Assembly: GCA_020348445.1 (NCBI GenBank)
Contig: CP070751.1
Location: 3,546,165-3,591,649, forward strand
DNA: 45,485 nucleotides
Source of the DNA: Thermoplasmata archaeon
Lineage (GTDB): Archaea > Thermoplasmatota > Thermoplasmata > GCA-020350865
Direction of reading: 5' to 3'
Below are positions 18,489 through 25,273 of the stretch, piece after piece (position 1 is the first letter of the stretch; every line of letters begins with the position of its first letter). The notes beneath the pieces are model-generated. The model was given only the letters and a program-made list of their open reading frames with translations, was not told the DNA's origin and did not search any database. Position numbers and translations under genes: made by a program.

Positions 18489-19538
18489 CTATTTAATGTA
18501 CTTCTCACAATGATTGCAGAACCAACATCTGTATCGATCAATATATTCCAAGGATTCTCCGCAGGTTTTGCATGTGGGTTTTTGTGTTTTTTTCATGGGA
18601 TCGGGGGGCCACTCTCCCGATTTCAAATGTTTGTATGGTATTGCGGTGGCTACAACCTTGAATCTCTCATCCAGTGAATTCTGCAGTGCCTGCGCCCTTT
18701 CCACCTGCTCACTTATCAATTCGTTTGTGATCTCCTCGGCTTGTATTGTGGTGTGCATGCACATCTGGAATTCCTCATCCATGAACTGAGACTTAGCTTG
18801 ATCAAGGTGTTTTTCAGCTGGTTCTATGTTTGCGCCAATATCTCTTGCTTGATGAATCATCCTTTCCACGAATCCCACTGCCTCCTTGATTATTGTTATC
18901 CTGTCTTCCCTGGTCTTTGCTAGGAGCTCTTTCGCCATTTTTAAGGTCTCATGACAATCAAAAAGTATGTCATTTTCCAAAAATGCCTTTGCCTCGATTA
19001 AAAGACGCTCGGTCTCGATGAGGTTTGCGCCTATGCGCTTTGCCATTTTAATATCCTCTTCGATATCAACGATTGCAACAAGGAGCCTTTCCTTGTAATT
19101 TTTCTTTAATGTTGGGATGACATCATTGAATTCCTTAATACCCGAAATGGCCTTGTCGTACATACCGTTTTCAAAATTTTCCTTTGAATAGGATAGTATG
19201 AGCTCAGCTTCGCTCGTATCAAGGCCAATTGCCGAAAGAGAATCCAGGAATTTCTCTGAAGAGAGAATGGCAATGGAGAGTCCCTTGCCATGGAACCTTT
19301 TCACGGCTGTTTCACCGATAGGCAAGGTATTTTTTATATTATTCAGAAGCTCGTAATATCTTCCGGTTTTAAATATCTGCTCTGTATCATAGAAAAGTTC
19401 CTCTACCTGGCTTAGATCCACATGCTCGTTGAAAATCGTTGATTTGAAATCGGAGCCCCTGGCCTCTTCGCCTTCATTACCTTCTTTAAAACCTTCCTGG
19501 TTTTTATAAATAGGATCTTCTTCTAGCATCCCATCCAC
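18489..19538 (-). CDS. Hypothetical helical-repeat protein with a C-terminal zinc ribbon
   Basis: Repeated A..IGA.I..AE..L..AK amphipathic units; terminal CKTC...WFCNHC. Confidence 0.7.
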   Translation of the reverse strand: MDGMLEEDPIYKNQEGFKEGNEGEEARGSDFKSTIFNEHVDLSQVEELFYDTEQIFKTGRYYELLNNIKNTLPIGETAVKRFHGKGLSIAILSSEKFLDSLSAIGLDTSEAELILSYSKENFENGMYDKAISGIKEFNDVIPTLKKNYKERLLVAIVDIEEDIKMAKRIGANLIETERLLIEAKAFLENDILFDCHETLKMAKELLAKTREDRITIIKEAVGFVERMIHQARDIGANIEPAEKHLDQAKSQFMDEEFQMCMHTTIQAEEITNELISEQVERAQALQNSLDERFKVVATAIPYKHLKSGEWPPDPMKKTQKPTCKTCGESLEYIDRYRCWFCNHCEKYIK

Positions 19539-19614
19539 CGTCCTTTTAATAAAACGATTTATTTAAAGGGTAAATGTGTTTAAACAAAATAAAGATTTCT
19601 GTTGGTCCCTATCC

Positions 19615-20625
19615 TCACTTTCCAAATGAATTGGACCTGCGAGAAACAATGGGAATGTCAAGAGGTAAAGCCTCCTCCCTTATAGCACATAAAAATCTTG
19701 GAGGTTTTGCATAAATTATTTTTTCAAATAAAGAAGCTTTATGGTATTTCTCATAGCCTGGGTTGTACCAAATGATTATATGTTGGTGTATCACAAAATC
19801 CCGCTCGATCTTTGAAATACCCATGAAGGAATCCAAACGGGCGCTGCTCTCAGCCTCTATTTGATCTATCACCTGTTTTTTATCCGATAATTTAACTTTC
19901 TCATCATTCAGGTAAAGTATTGTACGTGTCTGATCCCTCACACTTGATTCAACGAGTTTGTCCAAGAAGCCCTCTCCAACTCCAAATGGTTTTTTTGGCA
20001 TCTTCTGACCGGGTGCATATCTGTAAACGAGATCAAGCCCTGGAGCGCCGTAAACATCTTCGGAGATAATCCATGGTATCGTCCTGAGAAATTCCTCAAA
20101 CTCGGATGTGAACTCAGTTTTAAAAATCATTTTTGTGATGGCAGCTTCCGGATTTTGCGCTCCAAGAACCTCGCTCCATTGCGCAGGTGAAAGCTCTTTT
20201 ATGAGCGCAACCTCAACATAGAATTTCTTAAGTAGCTCCTGTGCGCTATTTTGGGAGGGAGACCATGTCTTTTTATGATTTGGAAAGAACAAACCCACCA
20301 TTCTCCCAGGGGGAACCTCCATGGGAGTGAGAAGTAAACCATATGCCTGTTTAAGATATTGGAGGTAGTCCTCCTTTGTGCGGTACTCTGTTCTTCTGTA
20401 AAATGGATGGAGCTTGGAAAGCAGTTTTGGTATGGCTTTTTCTCTTCTTTCTGGGACAACATCGTCCAAAAGGGAGAGCGTGTTTCCTGTGGATTTCGCT
20501 TTTTCTATCAGCTCTTGGCATCTGTCACTTTCCACGATTTCCTCGATTCTCTTCTCCACACCTCTATCATATTGGTAAATATCACCGAAGATCTCCTCTT
20601 TCTTTGGCCATAACTGCTTTTCCAT
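19615..20625 (-). CDS. Hypothetical soluble protein (no family recognised)
   Basis: 336-codon ORF with normal globular composition; fills the gap between same-strand neighbours. Confidence 0.65.
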   Translation of the reverse strand: MEKQLWPKKEEIFGDIYQYDRGVEKRIEEIVESDRCQELIEKAKSTGNTLSLLDDVVPERREKAIPKLLSKLHPFYRRTEYRTKEDYLQYLKQAYGLLLTPMEVPPGRMVGLFFPNHKKTWSPSQNSAQELLKKFYVEVALIKELSPAQWSEVLGAQNPEAAITKMIFKTEFTSEFEEFLRTIPWIISEDVYGAPGLDLVYRYAPGQKMPKKPFGVGEGFLDKLVESSVRDQTRTILYLNDEKVKLSDKKQVIDQIEAESSARLDSFMGISKIERDFVIHQHIIIWYNPGYEKYHKASLFEKIIYAKPPRFLCAIREEALPLDIPIVSRRSNSFGK

Positions 20626-20693
20626 GGGTATTATTAGGTTTTCAGTAAATAAAAGATTTTCGACAAAAACGCATTTTCATACAAAATAATAAT

Positions 20694-20701
20694 AAAAAAA
20701 A
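20694..20701 (-). terminator. Oligo-T tract after the ftsZ-like gene
   Basis: T8 followed by ATTATTATTTT on the minus strand, about 55 nt after the stop; archaeal terminators are often T-tracts. Confidence 0.35.
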
Positions 20702-20754
20702 GATGAAAACACCGAAGCTCAGTGCCTCATCAGATCTTTTCACTCGGAGATTAA

Positions 20755-21603
20755 CTATGCCAACTCCGTGGTTTTAAACCCCATTGTACCGTGCCCTAAG
20801 GGATTTTGCATTTTATCGTTTAGAAGATCCGCGTGTATAGGCACCGGTGCCACGACATTTGGTATCCTGTCAACCTGGGGTTCCTTCTCCTTTATCTCGC
20901 CTGTGGGCAATTCTCCTATTATCTCATCGATGTCCAGGCTCTTTGTTGCCATGATCGTCTGAAGAAGTGTATTTCTCGTGCTGATGATAACCTTGGATAT
21001 CATGGAATTCATGATATCGAGGCTCTCCTCTGCCGAAAGATCGGGCGCGATCTTAAGGAGCTTGTTGTTATCCAAAAGGATGACGCTTTCGGCGACGTTC
21101 TTCAGTTCTTCAAATCCTTTTCGTGCCCGCTTTCTCCTGTTAACCTCGGCAGCAAAAGGCATAATCCCTATCCCTATCACCACCGCTCCCTGCTCCTTTG
21201 CCAATCTTCCGATGACAGGCGTTGCACCCAACCCCGTTCCTCCACCGAGCCCTGCCACTAAAAACACGATATCCGAGTCTCTGACCATTTCCAAGAGGGA
21301 TTCTGCGGCAAGCTCCGCTGCCTGACATCCGATCTCCTTATGTCCTCCGCAACCTCTTCCTCGGGTTATCGTCTTTCCAATGAACATCTTCTTATCGGCT
21401 TCAATTTCCTCCAGATGCTTCTCATCGGTATTTATCCCGATGGTTGTAATACCTTCTTCGCCCAGTTTGTGGAAGTGATCCACAAGGTTGTTTCCAGCCC
21501 CCCCGCAGCCAATGACCAAAGTCACAGGCTCATCGAGATTTTCGTAGGGTGCTCGCATTCTTTCCACAATTTCGGTTACGGTTTCAGTCCTTTTATTCTT
21601 CAT
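20755..21603 (-). CDS. ftsZ: FtsZ-family GTPase homologue, truncated (GTP-binding domain only)
   Basis: VIGCGGAGNN, INTD..HL, TRGRGCGG, AGLGGGTGLGA, PF..E..R and DNNKLL motifs. The sequence ends in a 55-aa Pro/Glu-rich tail just after the T7-loop position. The symbol denotes family membership only. Confidence 0.85.
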   Translation of the reverse strand: MKNKRTETVTEIVERMRAPYENLDEPVTLVIGCGGAGNNLVDHFHKLGEEGITTIGINTDEKHLEEIEADKKMFIGKTITRGRGCGGHKEIGCQAAELAAESLLEMVRDSDIVFLVAGLGGGTGLGATPVIGRLAKEQGAVVIGIGIMPFAAEVNRRKRARKGFEELKNVAESVILLDNNKLLKIAPDLSAEESLDIMNSMISKVIISTRNTLLQTIMATKSLDIDEIIGELPTGEIKEKEPQVDRIPNVVAPVPIHADLLNDKMQNPLGHGTMGFKTTELA

Positions 21604-21887
21604 TTTAACTCCTCCGAGTTCCCCTACCAGTGGGGGTTTCGAAAAAGGTGACCCGCAATCTTTGGGAACGAAGTTTTCGTTCTTCGATAGAGTGGAATCT
21701 TTAGGGCCACCTTTTGTTTCGAATATACGGTGGCTGCTTTACGGTGAAAAATCGCATCCCATCCCTTCTGTCCAATGCTGGATAACCCGAGAAAATCTCG
21801 GGAGATAAGCTTGAAACCAAACCAAGGGCAATGATTCACACCGTGTGTTTCAGCTTTCATTCCGCGTGCGTATGCAATGTCTTACTC

Positions 21888-22292
21888 TCAATGCTTGAGA
21901 TAGTTATTCTCGATCTCCTTCTCCATCATCTTGGCATCCGCGAGCTTGTACTTGATCTCCTGGAGCTTCTCCTCGTGCTTCTCAATTTTATCCCAGGGAA
22001 GAGCTTCGAGGTAATCCCTTAGGATCTCGAAAAGGGCGGCTTCCAGTGACTTGAAGCGTCCTTTTTTAATCAGATAGTCTATGGCAGATATCTGATCATT
22101 TGATACAGGCACGAAGGTCTCACCTGGATGGCCTTTTTCAAGGGCTATCCTTCTGTCGATCAATTCCTTGGCTGCTACTCGAAGCAGCTCTGACCTGCTG
22201 GAAAACGTTTCCTCCTCGAGAAAGGAATCGATTATCCGTAGGTCTTTTTCAGGAAGGCGTATGGTGATTCTTTCTCCTTTGGCCCGCAACAA
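21888..22292 (-). CDS. CopG/MetJ/Arc ribbon-helix-helix regulator, CdrS-like, with a second RHH-like repeat and a coiled-coil tail
   Basis: ERITIRLP...IDSFL....FSSRSELLR.A; second unit TFVPVS...IDYLIKKGRFKS..AA; TTG start behind GGAGG; upstream of an ftsZ-family gene, as in archaeal cdrS-ftsZ2 loci. Confidence 0.8.
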   Translation of the reverse strand: MLRAKGERITIRLPEKDLRIIDSFLEEETFSSRSELLRVAAKELIDRRIALEKGHPGETFVPVSNDQISAIDYLIKKGRFKSLEAALFEILRDYLEALPWDKIEKHEEKLQEIKYKLADAKMMEKEIENNYLKH

Positions 22293-22317
22293 ATCGCCTC
22301 CAATCCGCTATTTTGTC

Positions 22318-22415
22318 TGACATTTGTCATTTATCCCAAATAATATAGTAAGACACTTGTAGCACCCTGTATAGTTTATAAGCATATAAATATTTCGTTA
22401 AGCTGACAAATGTCC
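22318..22415. promoter_or_regulatory. Candidate operator sites flanking the promoter of the RHH gene
   Basis: TGACATTTGTCA at 22318-22329 and TGACAAATGTCC at 22404-22415, with a weaker AGACACTTGTAG at 22351-22362, around a TATA-like stretch at about 22375-22390. Confidence 0.5.
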
Positions 22416-22777: not shown

Positions 22778-25273
22778 ATGAAAAAAATCGGAAAAATCAT
22801 GACTTTTGTGGTATTTGGAATGTTGATCTTGAATTTTGTGGCAGCAATACCCGTGGGTAATCCGGGTGATGTGGTTTTAGAAACAGATGTTGTGGATACC
22901 GAAGAAACCGAGCTCACAATCCCTGAAAATCCAGCTTCGCCTGAGAACCGGAAATTACCTGCCGATCCCTCAGATTCCGAAGATACAACAAATAACGTGG
23001 ATTCAACTCCACCAGAATCAACAGGATCTGGAAGTCCACCACCTCCACCACCCCCAACGGGATTCGATACTCCCGTTACTCCTTTGACAGGTAGTATACC
23101 ATTGCTCACTGTTTTTATGGAATGGACCGATGGACCTGGGGAAACTCCCCCTTCATTTGTCCAACAGCAACTGTTCGGACCTAGACCGAGCCTACAGGAC
23201 TTCATGATTGAAATGTCATATTTCCAGTTCACCTTCAGTGATGCAGGACATTATACATGGATACCTGCATGGGATGATCCACTCACGCCTGATGATGAGT
23301 CCACTAGGACGTTTTGGGAATCATTTCCCGATCCTAAAGATGGCGGAACATTCATTTCCCATGGTCTAGTAAGTCTTGATCAAGCAGGTTATAATTTTGC
23401 TCCTTTCGATACCAATAACGACGGTACAATCGAATTTGGCAAAGAAGTTGCTTACCTCATGATTGATGCAATGGACCCAGGGCTTGGGGGAAATTACAGA
23501 GGAGGGAGCACAAGAGGTATGCCGGTTTTGACATTGGATGGAAAAACAGCCTCAGGTAGAGTAAGCACCGTTTCCGAGGATTCCCCCTGGATCACACTAT
23601 ATGCACATGAACTGGGCCACCAGGTTTTACGACTTCCAGATTACTACGGTATTCTCCCCTGTCCTGTAAATAAGTTTACACTAATGGGTGTTAGTGGCTC
23701 ATACAATTGGCAAACGCCAATAGGACCACATCACATAGATTCATATTCTAAAATGAAACTTGGATGGTTCTCCCCAACTGTTGTAACTTCCGACGGTTAT
23801 TACGATATCCCTGATATGGAAACAAATCCAGTGGCTTACATCCTCCATGATCCTGCTCATGGAAAAGATGAGTACTTTATTGTGGAGAACCGATGGAAGG
23901 GCGACTCTTATGATAACTCAAATGGATTAATTGATCCTTTAGTTTCTCCACTTCCACCGGCTGATGCTCCTGCCGATATCCCAGACCAAGGTCTTTTAAT
24001 TTGGCATGTGGATGAAACTCGGAATTGGAATGGTAGTCAAACTGGTGGATTCCCAAAAGTGAATCTCACCCGCCGTTTTTATAATGATAAATACGCAGCC
24101 TTCAATGCCGATGATTTGGACTATTACGATTTTTATGATGGATCTTCGCCGATGAATGCAAAATGGTACACAGGAGCCAACAGCAAGTGCGGTGTCTGGG
24201 CTGTGTCAGATGCAGGTGAAAACATGCGCGCATGGCTGGATGTTCCCGGACCTGGTATACTTGAGCAACTCCTTACGCCTTCAGTTACTGCAATACCAGG
24301 CTCAGCGGGAACCTTGATGGTGAAAGTGGTGAACACTGGGGATGCAACTGACACGTTTTCATTCTCGGTTGTGGGTCTTCCCTCTGATCTCACTGCAGTA
24401 CCCCCGGGACCTGTTACCCTTAATTCCAAAGAGCAAACATACGAGGAATTTGATATAACTCCGATTAGGCATTGGACAACAGCTCCTGGAATAAGGACAT
24501 TCAAGCTGAGAGTGGAGAGCGACACCAATCCATCTGTTTTTACTGAAATAGATGCCACATTGGAGGTCCTTCCTTTTGGCCAACCCAAGGTGTCCATACC
24601 AATAGATTTTGCTGAAATCGATCCTGGAATGACTGCATATTACACAATAGAAATTACGAACGAGGGAAATGTGGTGGACACATTCTATCTTAACTTCATT
24701 GCCCTGGATTTTGGCTCAGCCTATGAGGCAATCCCAACTGCAATCGATTTCTCCTGGATTTTGTTTACTCCAAAATATCCTTCAGCAGTTCCGGGAGCTA
24801 CGACAACCACCACGCTAAGTATATCAGTTCCTTGGGATTGGGCAGCAATGGAAGATGCAATCTACGACTTCATAGTTACAGCAACAAGCTCGATCACACC
24901 TGATAGTGATTCAGACACAGGACAACTTAAGGTTCACGCAACTCCCCTTAGCATGATGTTCTGGGTTAAGGCCGAAATCGAGGATTTGATTTCTGACGTC
25001 GAAGCATTACCACCCTCTGATGTAAGGGATGGACTTCATGACAAGGCAACTGCAGCTTATAATAAAATCAATCAATCAATTAACAGATACCTTCTGGGGG
25101 ACGACCCACCTGCAAGCAACCTGCTAAAAACAACCAAGAACATGTTAAGGGCATTCTTGCATCTTCTGGATGCTCAAAGAGGTAAAGCTTTGACAGTTGC
25201 CCAAGCAGATTACCTGGCAGCAAAAGCCCAGAAGATAAGAGAGGACATCGACGCAATTCTGCTTGTTATATAA
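22778..25273 (+). CDS. Secreted M6 (immune inhibitor A)-like zinc metallopeptidase with Ig-like domains and a C-terminal helical (FIMAH-like) domain
   Basis: Signal peptide; HELGH..LRLPDYY zinc motif; LMG..G, EYFIVENR and GLLIWHVDE motifs of M6 peptidases; two V.N.G...DTF Ig-like units. Confidence 0.85.
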   Translation: MKKIGKIMTFVVFGMLILNFVAAIPVGNPGDVVLETDVVDTEETELTIPENPASPENRKLPADPSDSEDTTNNVDSTPPESTGSGSPPPPPPPTGFDTPVTPLTGSIPLLTVFMEWTDGPGETPPSFVQQQLFGPRPSLQDFMIEMSYFQFTFSDAGHYTWIPAWDDPLTPDDESTRTFWESFPDPKDGGTFISHGLVSLDQAGYNFAPFDTNNDGTIEFGKEVAYLMIDAMDPGLGGNYRGGSTRGMPVLTLDGKTASGRVSTVSEDSPWITLYAHELGHQVLRLPDYYGILPCPVNKFTLMGVSGSYNWQTPIGPHHIDSYSKMKLGWFSPTVVTSDGYYDIPDMETNPVAYILHDPAHGKDEYFIVENRWKGDSYDNSNGLIDPLVSPLPPADAPADIPDQGLLIWHVDETRNWNGSQTGGFPKVNLTRRFYNDKYAAFNADDLDYYDFYDGSSPMNAKWYTGANSKCGVWAVSDAGENMRAWLDVPGPGILEQLLTPSVTAIPGSAGTLMVKVVNTGDATDTFSFSVVGLPSDLTAVPPGPVTLNSKEQTYEEFDITPIRHWTTAPGIRTFKLRVESDTNPSVFTEIDATLEVLPFGQPKVSIPIDFAEIDPGMTAYYTIEITNEGNVVDTFYLNFIALDFGSAYEAIPTAIDFSWILFTPKYPSAVPGATTTTTLSISVPWDWAAMEDAIYDFIVTATSSITPDSDSDTGQLKVHATPLSMMFWVKAEIEDLISDVEALPPSDVRDGLHDKATAAYNKINQSINRYLLGDDPPASNLLKTTKNMLRAFLHLLDAQRGKALTVAQADYLAAKAQKIREDIDAILLVI

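Follow-up and report, generated by a model that had tools for sequence, protein, structure and literature searches.

A conserved half-length ftsZ gene with its own regulator is encoded in a 45,485-nt stretch of a Thermoplasmata archaeon genome (contig CP070751.1). This whole stretch is hereafter called the window, and its numbering is used for all coordinates not marked as genome positions. The gene, termed short ftsZ, encodes a real and conserved half-FtsZ derived from FtsZ2, and it is accompanied by a dedicated tandem ribbon-helix-helix (RHH) regulator. For polymerization and GTP hydrolysis, both globular halves of FtsZ and tubulin are generally considered necessary. In this case, the second half of FtsZ was already gone before the lineages of the class split, and purifying selection continues to act on the gene, which has a regulator of its own, so that short FtsZ represents a natural test of what the nucleotide-binding half does alone. 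The protein probably modulates division filaments instead of building them. The gene and its parts are as follows.

20755 to 21603, minus strand: coding sequence of short FtsZ, an open reading frame (ORF) of 282 amino acids (aa) with a TAG stop codon at 20755-20757; PF00091 only, a half-match to TIGR00065, and 100% identity to P0001.
20938 to 21534, minus strand: FtsZ nucleotide-binding domain and core helix H7, residues 24-222; AlphaFold predicted local distance difference test score (pLDDT) above 90, Foldseek root-mean-square deviation (rmsd) of 1.3-1.5 Å, and conserved T1, T2, T4, T5 and T6.
21226 to 21246, minus strand: tubulin signature GGGTGLG, residues 120-126, of which G120, G121 and G124 are invariant in the family.
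20923 to 20943, minus strand: T7/H8 remnant KSLDIDE, residues 221-227; D224 aligns to the last Asp of NxDxxD, and the Asn and first Asp are not kept.
20758 to 20922, minus strand: disordered tail, residues 228-282, with pLDDT below 50, APVPIHAD at residue 252, a short C-terminal hydrophobic motif, no GID motif, and an approximate ratio of nonsynonymous to synonymous substitution rates (dN/dS) of 0.16-0.7.
20680 to 20712, minus strand: oligo-T run 3' of the short ftsZ stop codon, read from the sequence; a putative archaeal terminator.

Short ftsZ starts with ATG, preceded by GGAGGAG. The sole Pfam domain of its product is PF00091 (1.8e-38, residues 29-186), and Pfam gives no match to PF12327 (FtsZ_C) in the protein. 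TIGR00065 aligns residues 23-207 to model positions 15-200 of 353 with 197.3 bits, which is below its curated cut-off of 295.2 bits. The AlphaFold model, built from a 39-sequence family alignment, has pLDDT above 90 over approximately residues 30-220, comprising the N-domain and the long H7 (191-222), and is disordered from residue 230 onward. Foldseek superposes it onto FtsZ chains over about 185 columns at 1.3-1.5 Å, covering only about 58% of each target. By sequence, the protein is near archaeal FtsZ (M. jannaschii FtsZ1, 2e-40) and distant from CetZ, whose structures match at 1e-11 compared to 1e-40 for FtsZ. Identity to the FtsZ2 paralogue of the same genome is 44%. Sequence scores and architecture ruled out membership in CetZ, FtsZl1, or TubZ. 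A first-pass annotation, made from the letters of this region, had described an RHH gene paired with an FtsZ homologue that keeps an intact GTP-binding domain and lacks the whole C-terminal domain, and this description was borne out. Both ORFs are where it had placed them on the minus strand, the T1-T6 motifs could be located alongside the PF00091 match, and Pfam, a six-frame FtsZ_C search, AlphaFold, and Foldseek agree on the missing domain. The letters it had quoted are likewise present at the residues given: GGGTGLG, SLDIMN (residues 194-199), and KSLDIDE (221-227), followed by a 55-residue tail.

The bare fact that half of FtsZ is missing could speak for a recent pseudogene, a misassembly, or a split gene with a separate C-terminal domain, an explanation to which we give practically no credence. 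The source genome is a single contig of 5.16 Mb, and a six-frame search of all of it for FtsZ_C (PF12327) found three sites, all within full-length ftsZ genes, with none in the window and none free-standing. Read-through of the TAG would yield only four codons before a TGA. Together with the near-absence of FtsZ_C in Methanomethylophilaceae, where it was not found in 39 of 41 genomes, these results ruled out a frameshift, read-through, or split gene, and the earlier statement that no frameshifted C-terminal domain is present agrees with the lack of FtsZ_C in any frame of the window. In addition, the same architecture is present in more than 45 database clusters and more than 60 loci, is monophyletic, and is under purifying selection. 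The genome has an estimated completeness of 82%, and its size greatly exceeds the 1.2-3.7 Mb of sampled relatives in the class.

Short ftsZ is an old, class-wide family and no peculiarity of the source genome. It was found in all four other genomes of the genus with 69-76% identity, one of which carries a second copy (66%). The first-pass annotation had considered that close relatives might hold a full-length gene at this locus, and every relative examined has the short form. About 45 database clusters of 246-319 aa match short FtsZ over most of its length with PF00091 only, and a profile search of 1.8 billion representatives returned about 40 further clusters without the C-terminal domain, some of the shortest of which may be fragments. 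The longest top matches of this profile (731-840 aa), considered as fused long forms of the short family, were tandem fusions of two complete FtsZs. All 20 of 20 loci from many families of the class encode a 258-317-aa FtsZ without the C-terminal domain, and the loci and clusters counted above hold this architecture at 200-300 aa. The family is represented in at least 13 families of the class Thermoplasmata, Methanomassiliicoccales included, and among 150 sampled genomes of the phylum, frames shorter than about 305 aa were confined to the same class, the lone exception being a match cut by a contig end. In the examined genomes of 11 families that still hold full-length ftsZ, short ftsZ co-occurs with ftsZ2. 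Within the genus, dN/dS is 0.06-0.16 in the domain and 0.16-0.7 in the tail, ratios that are approximate because synonymous sites are saturated; the truncation is thus conserved with dN/dS below 1 in the domain, as the first-pass annotation had suggested checking. Short ftsZ is no pseudogene and belongs to a family under purifying selection. Its members are labeled "cell division protein FtsZ" or "hypothetical" in databases, and the literature searched yielded no account of an archaeal subfamily of FtsZ that lacks the C-terminal domain.

Phylogenetic analysis places the family within the FtsZ2 lineage. A FastTree phylogeny of 152 N-domains groups every protein that lacks the C-terminal domain into a single clade (53 tips, support 0.964) within the FtsZ2-type part, and the ftsZ1-type clade is split off at 0.998. 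An IQ-TREE analysis of 70 sequences of the class, run as a fast search with the Shimodaira-Hasegawa-like approximate likelihood ratio test (SH-aLRT), recovered the short clade (28 tips) at 94.1, with RHH-linked FtsZ2 as successive sisters (96.3 and 94.1) and a separate ftsZ1-type clade at 95.2. In both cases, FtsZ1-type is defined by a secE-nusG-rpl11 context and FtsZ2-type by an upstream RHH gene, labeled Haloferax references not being among the sequences. The tie to ftsZ2 that had been drawn in the first-pass annotation is upheld by this branching. The exact sister of the short clade in the large tree, Poseidoniia plus Nanoarchaeum FtsZ, was set aside as an unreliable fast-evolving mix that probably reflects long-branch attraction. 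The regulators found upstream of short ftsZ (type RHH-A) and of full-length ftsZ2 (type RHH-B) are paralogous tandem-RHH proteins, and both types occur in the same genomes. Because the short clade nests among RHH-linked FtsZ2 and both upstream regulators are paralogous, the simplest history, which is well supported, is duplication of the whole RHH-ftsZ2 module in an ancestor of Thermoplasmata, followed by a single loss of the C-terminal domain in one copy.

In order to describe what is kept and what is lost, residues were compared between 49 distinct sequences of the short family and 93 full-length FtsZs. Conservation is equal in both groups for T1 (G32, G34, G35, G37, and N39), T2 (N58, T59, and D60), T4 (G120-G124 and G126), T5 (P149, F150, E153, and R156), and T6 (N179). 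In H7, the F195 position is F, L, Y, or M and the D199 position is N or D in the short family. SLDIMN had been taken as a lost guanine contact in the first-pass annotation, a reading that does not hold, since the positions of L195 and N199 vary in this way throughout the family. The T7 loop had been called degenerate, which is correct for the Asn and first Asp of NxDxxD, which have no counterpart, but not for the last Asp, to which D224 was aligned by both alignments. In the filament of S. aureus FtsZ, the lower subunit contributes T2 D46, R143, T3, T5, and the H6-H7 loop, and the upper subunit contributes T7 N208/D210/D213, H8, S9, and H10; mutation of N208, D210, or D213 abolishes assembly, and incoming monomers are proposed to join the T7-exposing growing end via their GTP-bound top face (bioRxiv 10.1101/2021.11.29.470395). 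Short FtsZ keeps the lower-subunit features T1-T6, D60, E153, and R156 and is without the upper-subunit features T7 Asn, T7 first Asp, S9, and H10. Because the lower-subunit contribution is kept and most of the upper-subunit contribution is lost, we prefer end-binding or capping of FtsZ filaments as the mechanism suggested by the sequence; it is the best supported, and we hold it tentatively, at somewhat less than an even chance. The capping or dominant-negative role that had been put forward in the first-pass annotation agrees with this residue pattern.

According to this mechanism, short FtsZ would bind GTP and take the lower position in the FtsZ longitudinal contact, offering its nucleotide face (T1-T6, D60, E153, and R156) to the T7 loop of full-length FtsZ2 or FtsZ1. 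With S9, H10, and most of T7/H8 missing, it would give no matching face to a further subunit, and by joining the growing, T7-exposing end of a filament, it could stop or limit growth. Alternatively, it may mark the growing end and recruit a partner through its tail. Possible partners are encoded in the source genome, in which two ftsZ1-type genes, one ftsZ2-type gene, and sepF were found, answering the question raised in the first-pass annotation of whether full-length ftsZ exists elsewhere. The two ftsZ1-type genes form a tandem pair (genome positions 2902325-2904746, plus strand) directly 5' of secE-nusG-rpl11, and the same tandem is present in several other genomes of the class. The tail itself has recurrent features. 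A motif P-x-P-[ILV]-[HYE]-A lies 20-30 residues before the end in many subclades, and hydrophobic or aromatic residues often make up the final 5-10 positions (DLLQ, FLETYA, FDTFD, and PSMFG). In archaeal FtsZ, the GID motif of the C-terminal peptide is nearly invariant and binds SepF (PMC8178401). FtsZ1a, FtsZ1b, and FtsZ2 of the source genome end with GID-, GIE-, and GQD-type motifs, respectively. A SepF-binding GID motif was considered for the short FtsZ tail and is absent, and none was found in the short-family tails examined.

The FtsZ set is reduced in Methanomethylophilaceae, for which 41 genomes of 15 genera were sampled (G033-G078; loci L036 and L077-L092). The short-family profile matches 40 of these 41 genomes. 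The two genomes in which Pfam FtsZ_C was detected give weak matches in diverged FtsZ2-like genes, and no ftsZ1-type gene was found in the genomes searched. In most genera, an RHH-B gene is followed by one for a very diverged FtsZ2 of 279-321 aa, whose C-terminal part is reduced. A view that the family has no canonical FtsZ at all was corrected accordingly: a diverged FtsZ2 is present in most genera, and the short form stands alone in genera g24 and g32 only. The FtsZ set of this family was reduced stepwise. SepF is encoded in four of five closed (single-contig) genomes searched, which carry a diverged FtsZ2-like gene; a proposed link between SepF loss and loss of the tail motif was dropped, since four closed genomes have SepF. 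These findings bear on division in Methanomassiliicoccales, including human-gut methanogens with a reduced or undetectable canonical FtsZ set.

Several observations weigh against capping as set out above. Within the nucleotide face, T3 shows relaxed conservation in the short family (P89, and G86, which is conserved in 46% compared to 97% in full-length FtsZ). An acidic residue at position 224 is kept in 41 of 48 members (85%), which could mean that the role of the upper subunit is not wholly lost. In g24 and g32 (genome completeness 95-99%, one genome in two contigs), no tubulin-family gene was detected other than the short form, which has RHH-A upstream, and since it is the only FtsZ homologue found there, capping is not its whole function. 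In G033, G044, and G068, the sole short FtsZ has intact GTP motifs, and therefore has some function independent of other FtsZ. A different course was seen in three of the four sampled g32 genomes, where the short protein is about 205 aa long, T3 is lost, and T2 and T4 are changed. Loss of an FtsZ target would allow such decay, which fits an FtsZ-tied function.

The same intact sole copies in G033, G044, and G068 speak for a minimal assembling FtsZ that would form GTP-dependent homopolymers, or co-polymers with FtsZ2, without a C-terminal domain and use its tail as linker and anchor peptide. The retention of D or E at position 224 in 85% of members, the disordered tail with a terminal motif that resembles the linker and peptide layout of FtsZ, and the presence of SepF in four of five closed Methanomethylophilaceae genomes without a Pfam FtsZ_C match (in which the diverged FtsZ2-like gene is still there) are also compatible with assembly. 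However, the equivalents of N208 and D210, each required for assembly of S. aureus FtsZ, are lost, and on the upper side, partners are missing for two of the four longitudinal contact regions (S9-T5, and H10 with the H6-H7 loop). Furthermore, the tails do not carry the GID motif that binds SepF (PMC8178401), and the acidic residue 224 lies within a generally acidic stretch. We regard self-assembly as improbable. Between a capping protein and an autonomous one lies a combined possibility, doubtful but worth stating, that short FtsZ and its tandem-RHH regulator constitute a self-sufficient GTP-dependent module independent of canonical FtsZ, which would act as a natural cap in organisms like the source and, in the two genera of Methanomethylophilaceae, which are gut-associated, through a novel assembly or by gating transcription through RHH-A.

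The regulator gene is located immediately beyond the spacer that precedes short ftsZ.

21888 to 22292, minus strand: coding sequence of the RHH-A regulator, 134 aa, with PF01402 at residues 8-47; first RHH unit at 22143-22280, second RHH unit at 21996-22124, and C-terminal helix at 21894-21995.

PF01402 is detected in RHH-A at 3.6e-8. Profiles of the N-terminal and C-terminal RHH halves align with 98.1% probability (E 9e-14), and the secondary structure consists of an extended segment and two helices, repeated, and then a helix of 34 residues. This last helix is found in RHH-A only and not in RHH-B, which in the source genome is a 115-aa protein whose gene precedes full-length ftsZ2. The RHH-A units superpose on RHH domains of ParD and NikR at 0.9-2.0 Å over about 44 residues, with weak overall Foldseek E-values. 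The first-pass annotation had called the regulator cdrS-like. The RHH fold and the upstream position support the comparison, but RHH-A is a 134-aa tandem RHH and no CdrS equivalog, scoring 29.6 bits against NF058555 with a cut-off of 100. RHH-A is directly upstream of short ftsZ in nearly all loci, and the pair is the sole conserved neighborhood; other neighbors are a class I aminoacyl-tRNA synthetase, a major facilitator superfamily (MFS) transporter, an NAD kinase, and similar genes. Occurrence in at least 13 families, varied housekeeping neighbors, and a non-mobile distribution argue against a mobile cassette of the type II toxin-antitoxin kind with an RHH antitoxin.

The exclusive pairing, among neighbors that are otherwise housekeeping genes, could also reflect a GTP-dependent switch in which short FtsZ acts off filaments, binds RHH-A, for example through the C-terminal helix or tail motifs, and thereby lets its nucleotide state control how division or growth genes are transcribed. 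The pair is retained in genomes in which no further FtsZ homologue was found, the helix of about 35 residues distinguishes RHH-A from RHH-B, and RHH proteins often carry a C-terminal extension that binds a partner, as do the ParD-type antitoxins that appear among the weak Foldseek matches. However, R156 and E153, which are tied to hydrolysis at the composite site, are conserved though needless for a simple switch, and the cdrS-ftsZ2 locus also keeps a regulator beside its target gene without known protein-protein contact (PMC7439475). A switch of this kind is unlikely in our estimation.

Two noncoding features upstream of short ftsZ suggest how its expression may be tied to that of ftsZ2.

21604 to 21887, minus strand: spacer of 284 nt between the RHH-A gene and short ftsZ; six orthologous spacers were aligned, and the core is conserved across the genus.
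21752 to 21770, minus strand: 19-nt element CAGAAGGGATGGGATGCGA, of which the 5.16 Mb genome contains just one further exact copy, at genome positions 4673377-4673395, minus strand.

Invariant in the six spacers are AGAAGGGATGGGATG.GATTTT.CACCG and a hairpin CCCGAGA/TCTCGGG (CCCGAGA-TTTT-CTCGGG), though synonymous sites of the neighboring genes are saturated. A stretch CCTTT in the spacer is able to pair with the GGAGG Shine-Dalgarno sequence of short ftsZ, with weak covariation support. An Rfam search of the spacer gave no match. The second exact copy of CAGAAGGGATGGGATGCGA is located 28 nt past the RHH-B stop codon, 5' of ftsZ2, and a copy with 17 of 19 matching positions was found at genome positions 1050966-1050984 (minus strand), within an unrelated intergenic hairpin. 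For the 15-nt core of the 19-mer, 0.006 chance occurrences would be expected. The identical 19-mer is modest evidence, from the sequence, that short ftsZ and ftsZ2 may be co-regulated. In a scan of 556 kb of loci, 15 of the 16 exact matches to the core GGGATGGGAT(GC) were located upstream of ftsZ2, ftsZ1-type genes, short ftsZ, or the RHH gene of the latter, and at least six families are represented among them; the loci scanned had been selected around ftsZ genes and are related to one another, and the count carries no formal test. The GGGATGGGAT core is not confined to such genes, which weighs against the favored account: it occurs 35 times in the genome compared to about 6 expected, sometimes 3-6 nt 5' of the start codons of unrelated genes. 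A role as Shine-Dalgarno sequence was considered and rejected: the 16S 3' end is the usual ...GGATCACCTCCT, hand-worked pairing is imperfect, and short ftsZ has its own GGAGGAG. The GGGATGGGAT element may be a DNA operator for RHH proteins, an RNA element (it is often in a hairpin loop), or the start of a mini-ORF (ATG-GGA-TGC, MGC...). Under the capping mechanism, the dose of short FtsZ would probably be set by its own RHH-A together with the element that also lies upstream of ftsZ2, so that its expression would follow that of the division genes. The shared element provides an entry point for studying how archaeal division is regulated outside haloarchaea.

Upstream of the regulators themselves, TGTCAGACAAA is common to the upstream regions of both RHH genes (window 22314-22415; genome approximately 4673835), inside TGACA/TGTCA-type repeats, and TGTCAGACA-type repeats are present upstream of both genes as well. 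The 11-mer of the RHH upstream regions occurs 8 times in the genome compared to 3.2 expected, and as a possible mark of RHH autoregulation or cross-regulation, it is only a lead.

Other genes near short ftsZ are specific to the genus or have no family match.

19615 to 20625, minus strand: downstream gene for a 336-aa protein without family match, found in this genus only; homologues follow short ftsZ in four loci of the genus, one of them being the second paralogous locus of G001.

The oligo-T run sets this gene off from short ftsZ, a TATA-like box of its own is present, and searches for its product gave no Pfam, NCBIfam, or Atlas lead. Its membership in the short-ftsZ module is doubtful. A 349-aa genus-specific gene without family match also follows short ftsZ on the same strand, the two genes spanning window positions 18489-20625 (minus strand), and its product contains repeated helical motifs and a zinc-ribbon-like C-terminal CxxC...CxxC end. 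Both downstream genes were rejected as partners, given that they are genus-only, that family and Atlas searches gave no lead for either, and that the oligo-T run lies between them and ftsZ. On the other strand (window 22778-25273, plus), an 831-aa protein is encoded that begins like a signal peptide and contains a Pro-rich stretch and an HELGH motif resembling that of zinc proteases; Pfam gives no match for it, and it shares 73% identity with a protein in a genus relative.

The parent system of the short-ftsZ module is cdrS-ftsZ2, described in Halobacterium salinarum and Haloferax volcanii (Darnell et al. 2020, PMC7439475). In both cases, an RHH gene is located directly 5' of an FtsZ2-lineage gene, the source genome also has a full-length version of the module, and the short form branches with FtsZ2-type proteins. 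RHH-A shares the fold and position of CdrS without being its equivalog: RHH-A comprises 134 aa with two RHH units in tandem and an additional helix, whereas CdrS is a single RHH of about 60 aa. Furthermore, short FtsZ does not have the C-terminal domain, the full T7 loop, or the GID peptide, and a conserved spacer of 284 nt separates the two genes here.

Truncated FtsZ paralogues of Hyphomicrobiales, such as FtsZ1 and FtsZ3 of Agrobacterium tumefaciens, are likewise old, maintained short duplicates beside an essential full-length FtsZ; overexpression of A. tumefaciens FtsZ1 blocks division, suggesting a tuning role, and the protein is reported to co-polymerize with full-length FtsZ (bioRxiv 10.1101/2025.09.29.679267). 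The bacterial paralogues keep the GTPase domain and are without one or more C-terminal motifs (linker or terminal domain), whereas short FtsZ is without the C-terminal globular subdomain but has a tail, and it has an independent archaeal origin and its own regulator. FtsZl1, another member of the FtsZ superfamily, also has no recognizable FtsZ C-terminal domain, and its ability to form filaments is doubtful (Makarova and Koonin 2010, PMC2875224). FtsZl1 is very diverged, is without T6-H7, and has a coiled coil and its own alpha-helical C-terminal domain. In contrast, short FtsZ keeps a confidently modeled H7, has no coiled coil, and shares the 44% identity to FtsZ2 given above.

With regard to the proposed function, MciZ and SulA limit the growth of FtsZ polymers by occupying an interface. 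They are unrelated to FtsZ in sequence and fold and bind different faces, and their likeness to short FtsZ is a functional analogy only. Engineered interface mutants of FtsZ and the growing-end model are reportedly treated by Du et al. in PNAS in 2018. A parallel in design is given by such mutants with an intact GTP-bound top face and a defective T7 face, since a protein of this kind is expected to block the growing end (bioRxiv 10.1101/2021.11.29.470395). Those are laboratory point mutants of full-length FtsZ, whereas short FtsZ is a natural conserved protein without the whole domain, for which capping is suggested by its sequence. If it does cap filaments, short FtsZ could be the first known case of a filament-end regulator that evolved from FtsZ itself.

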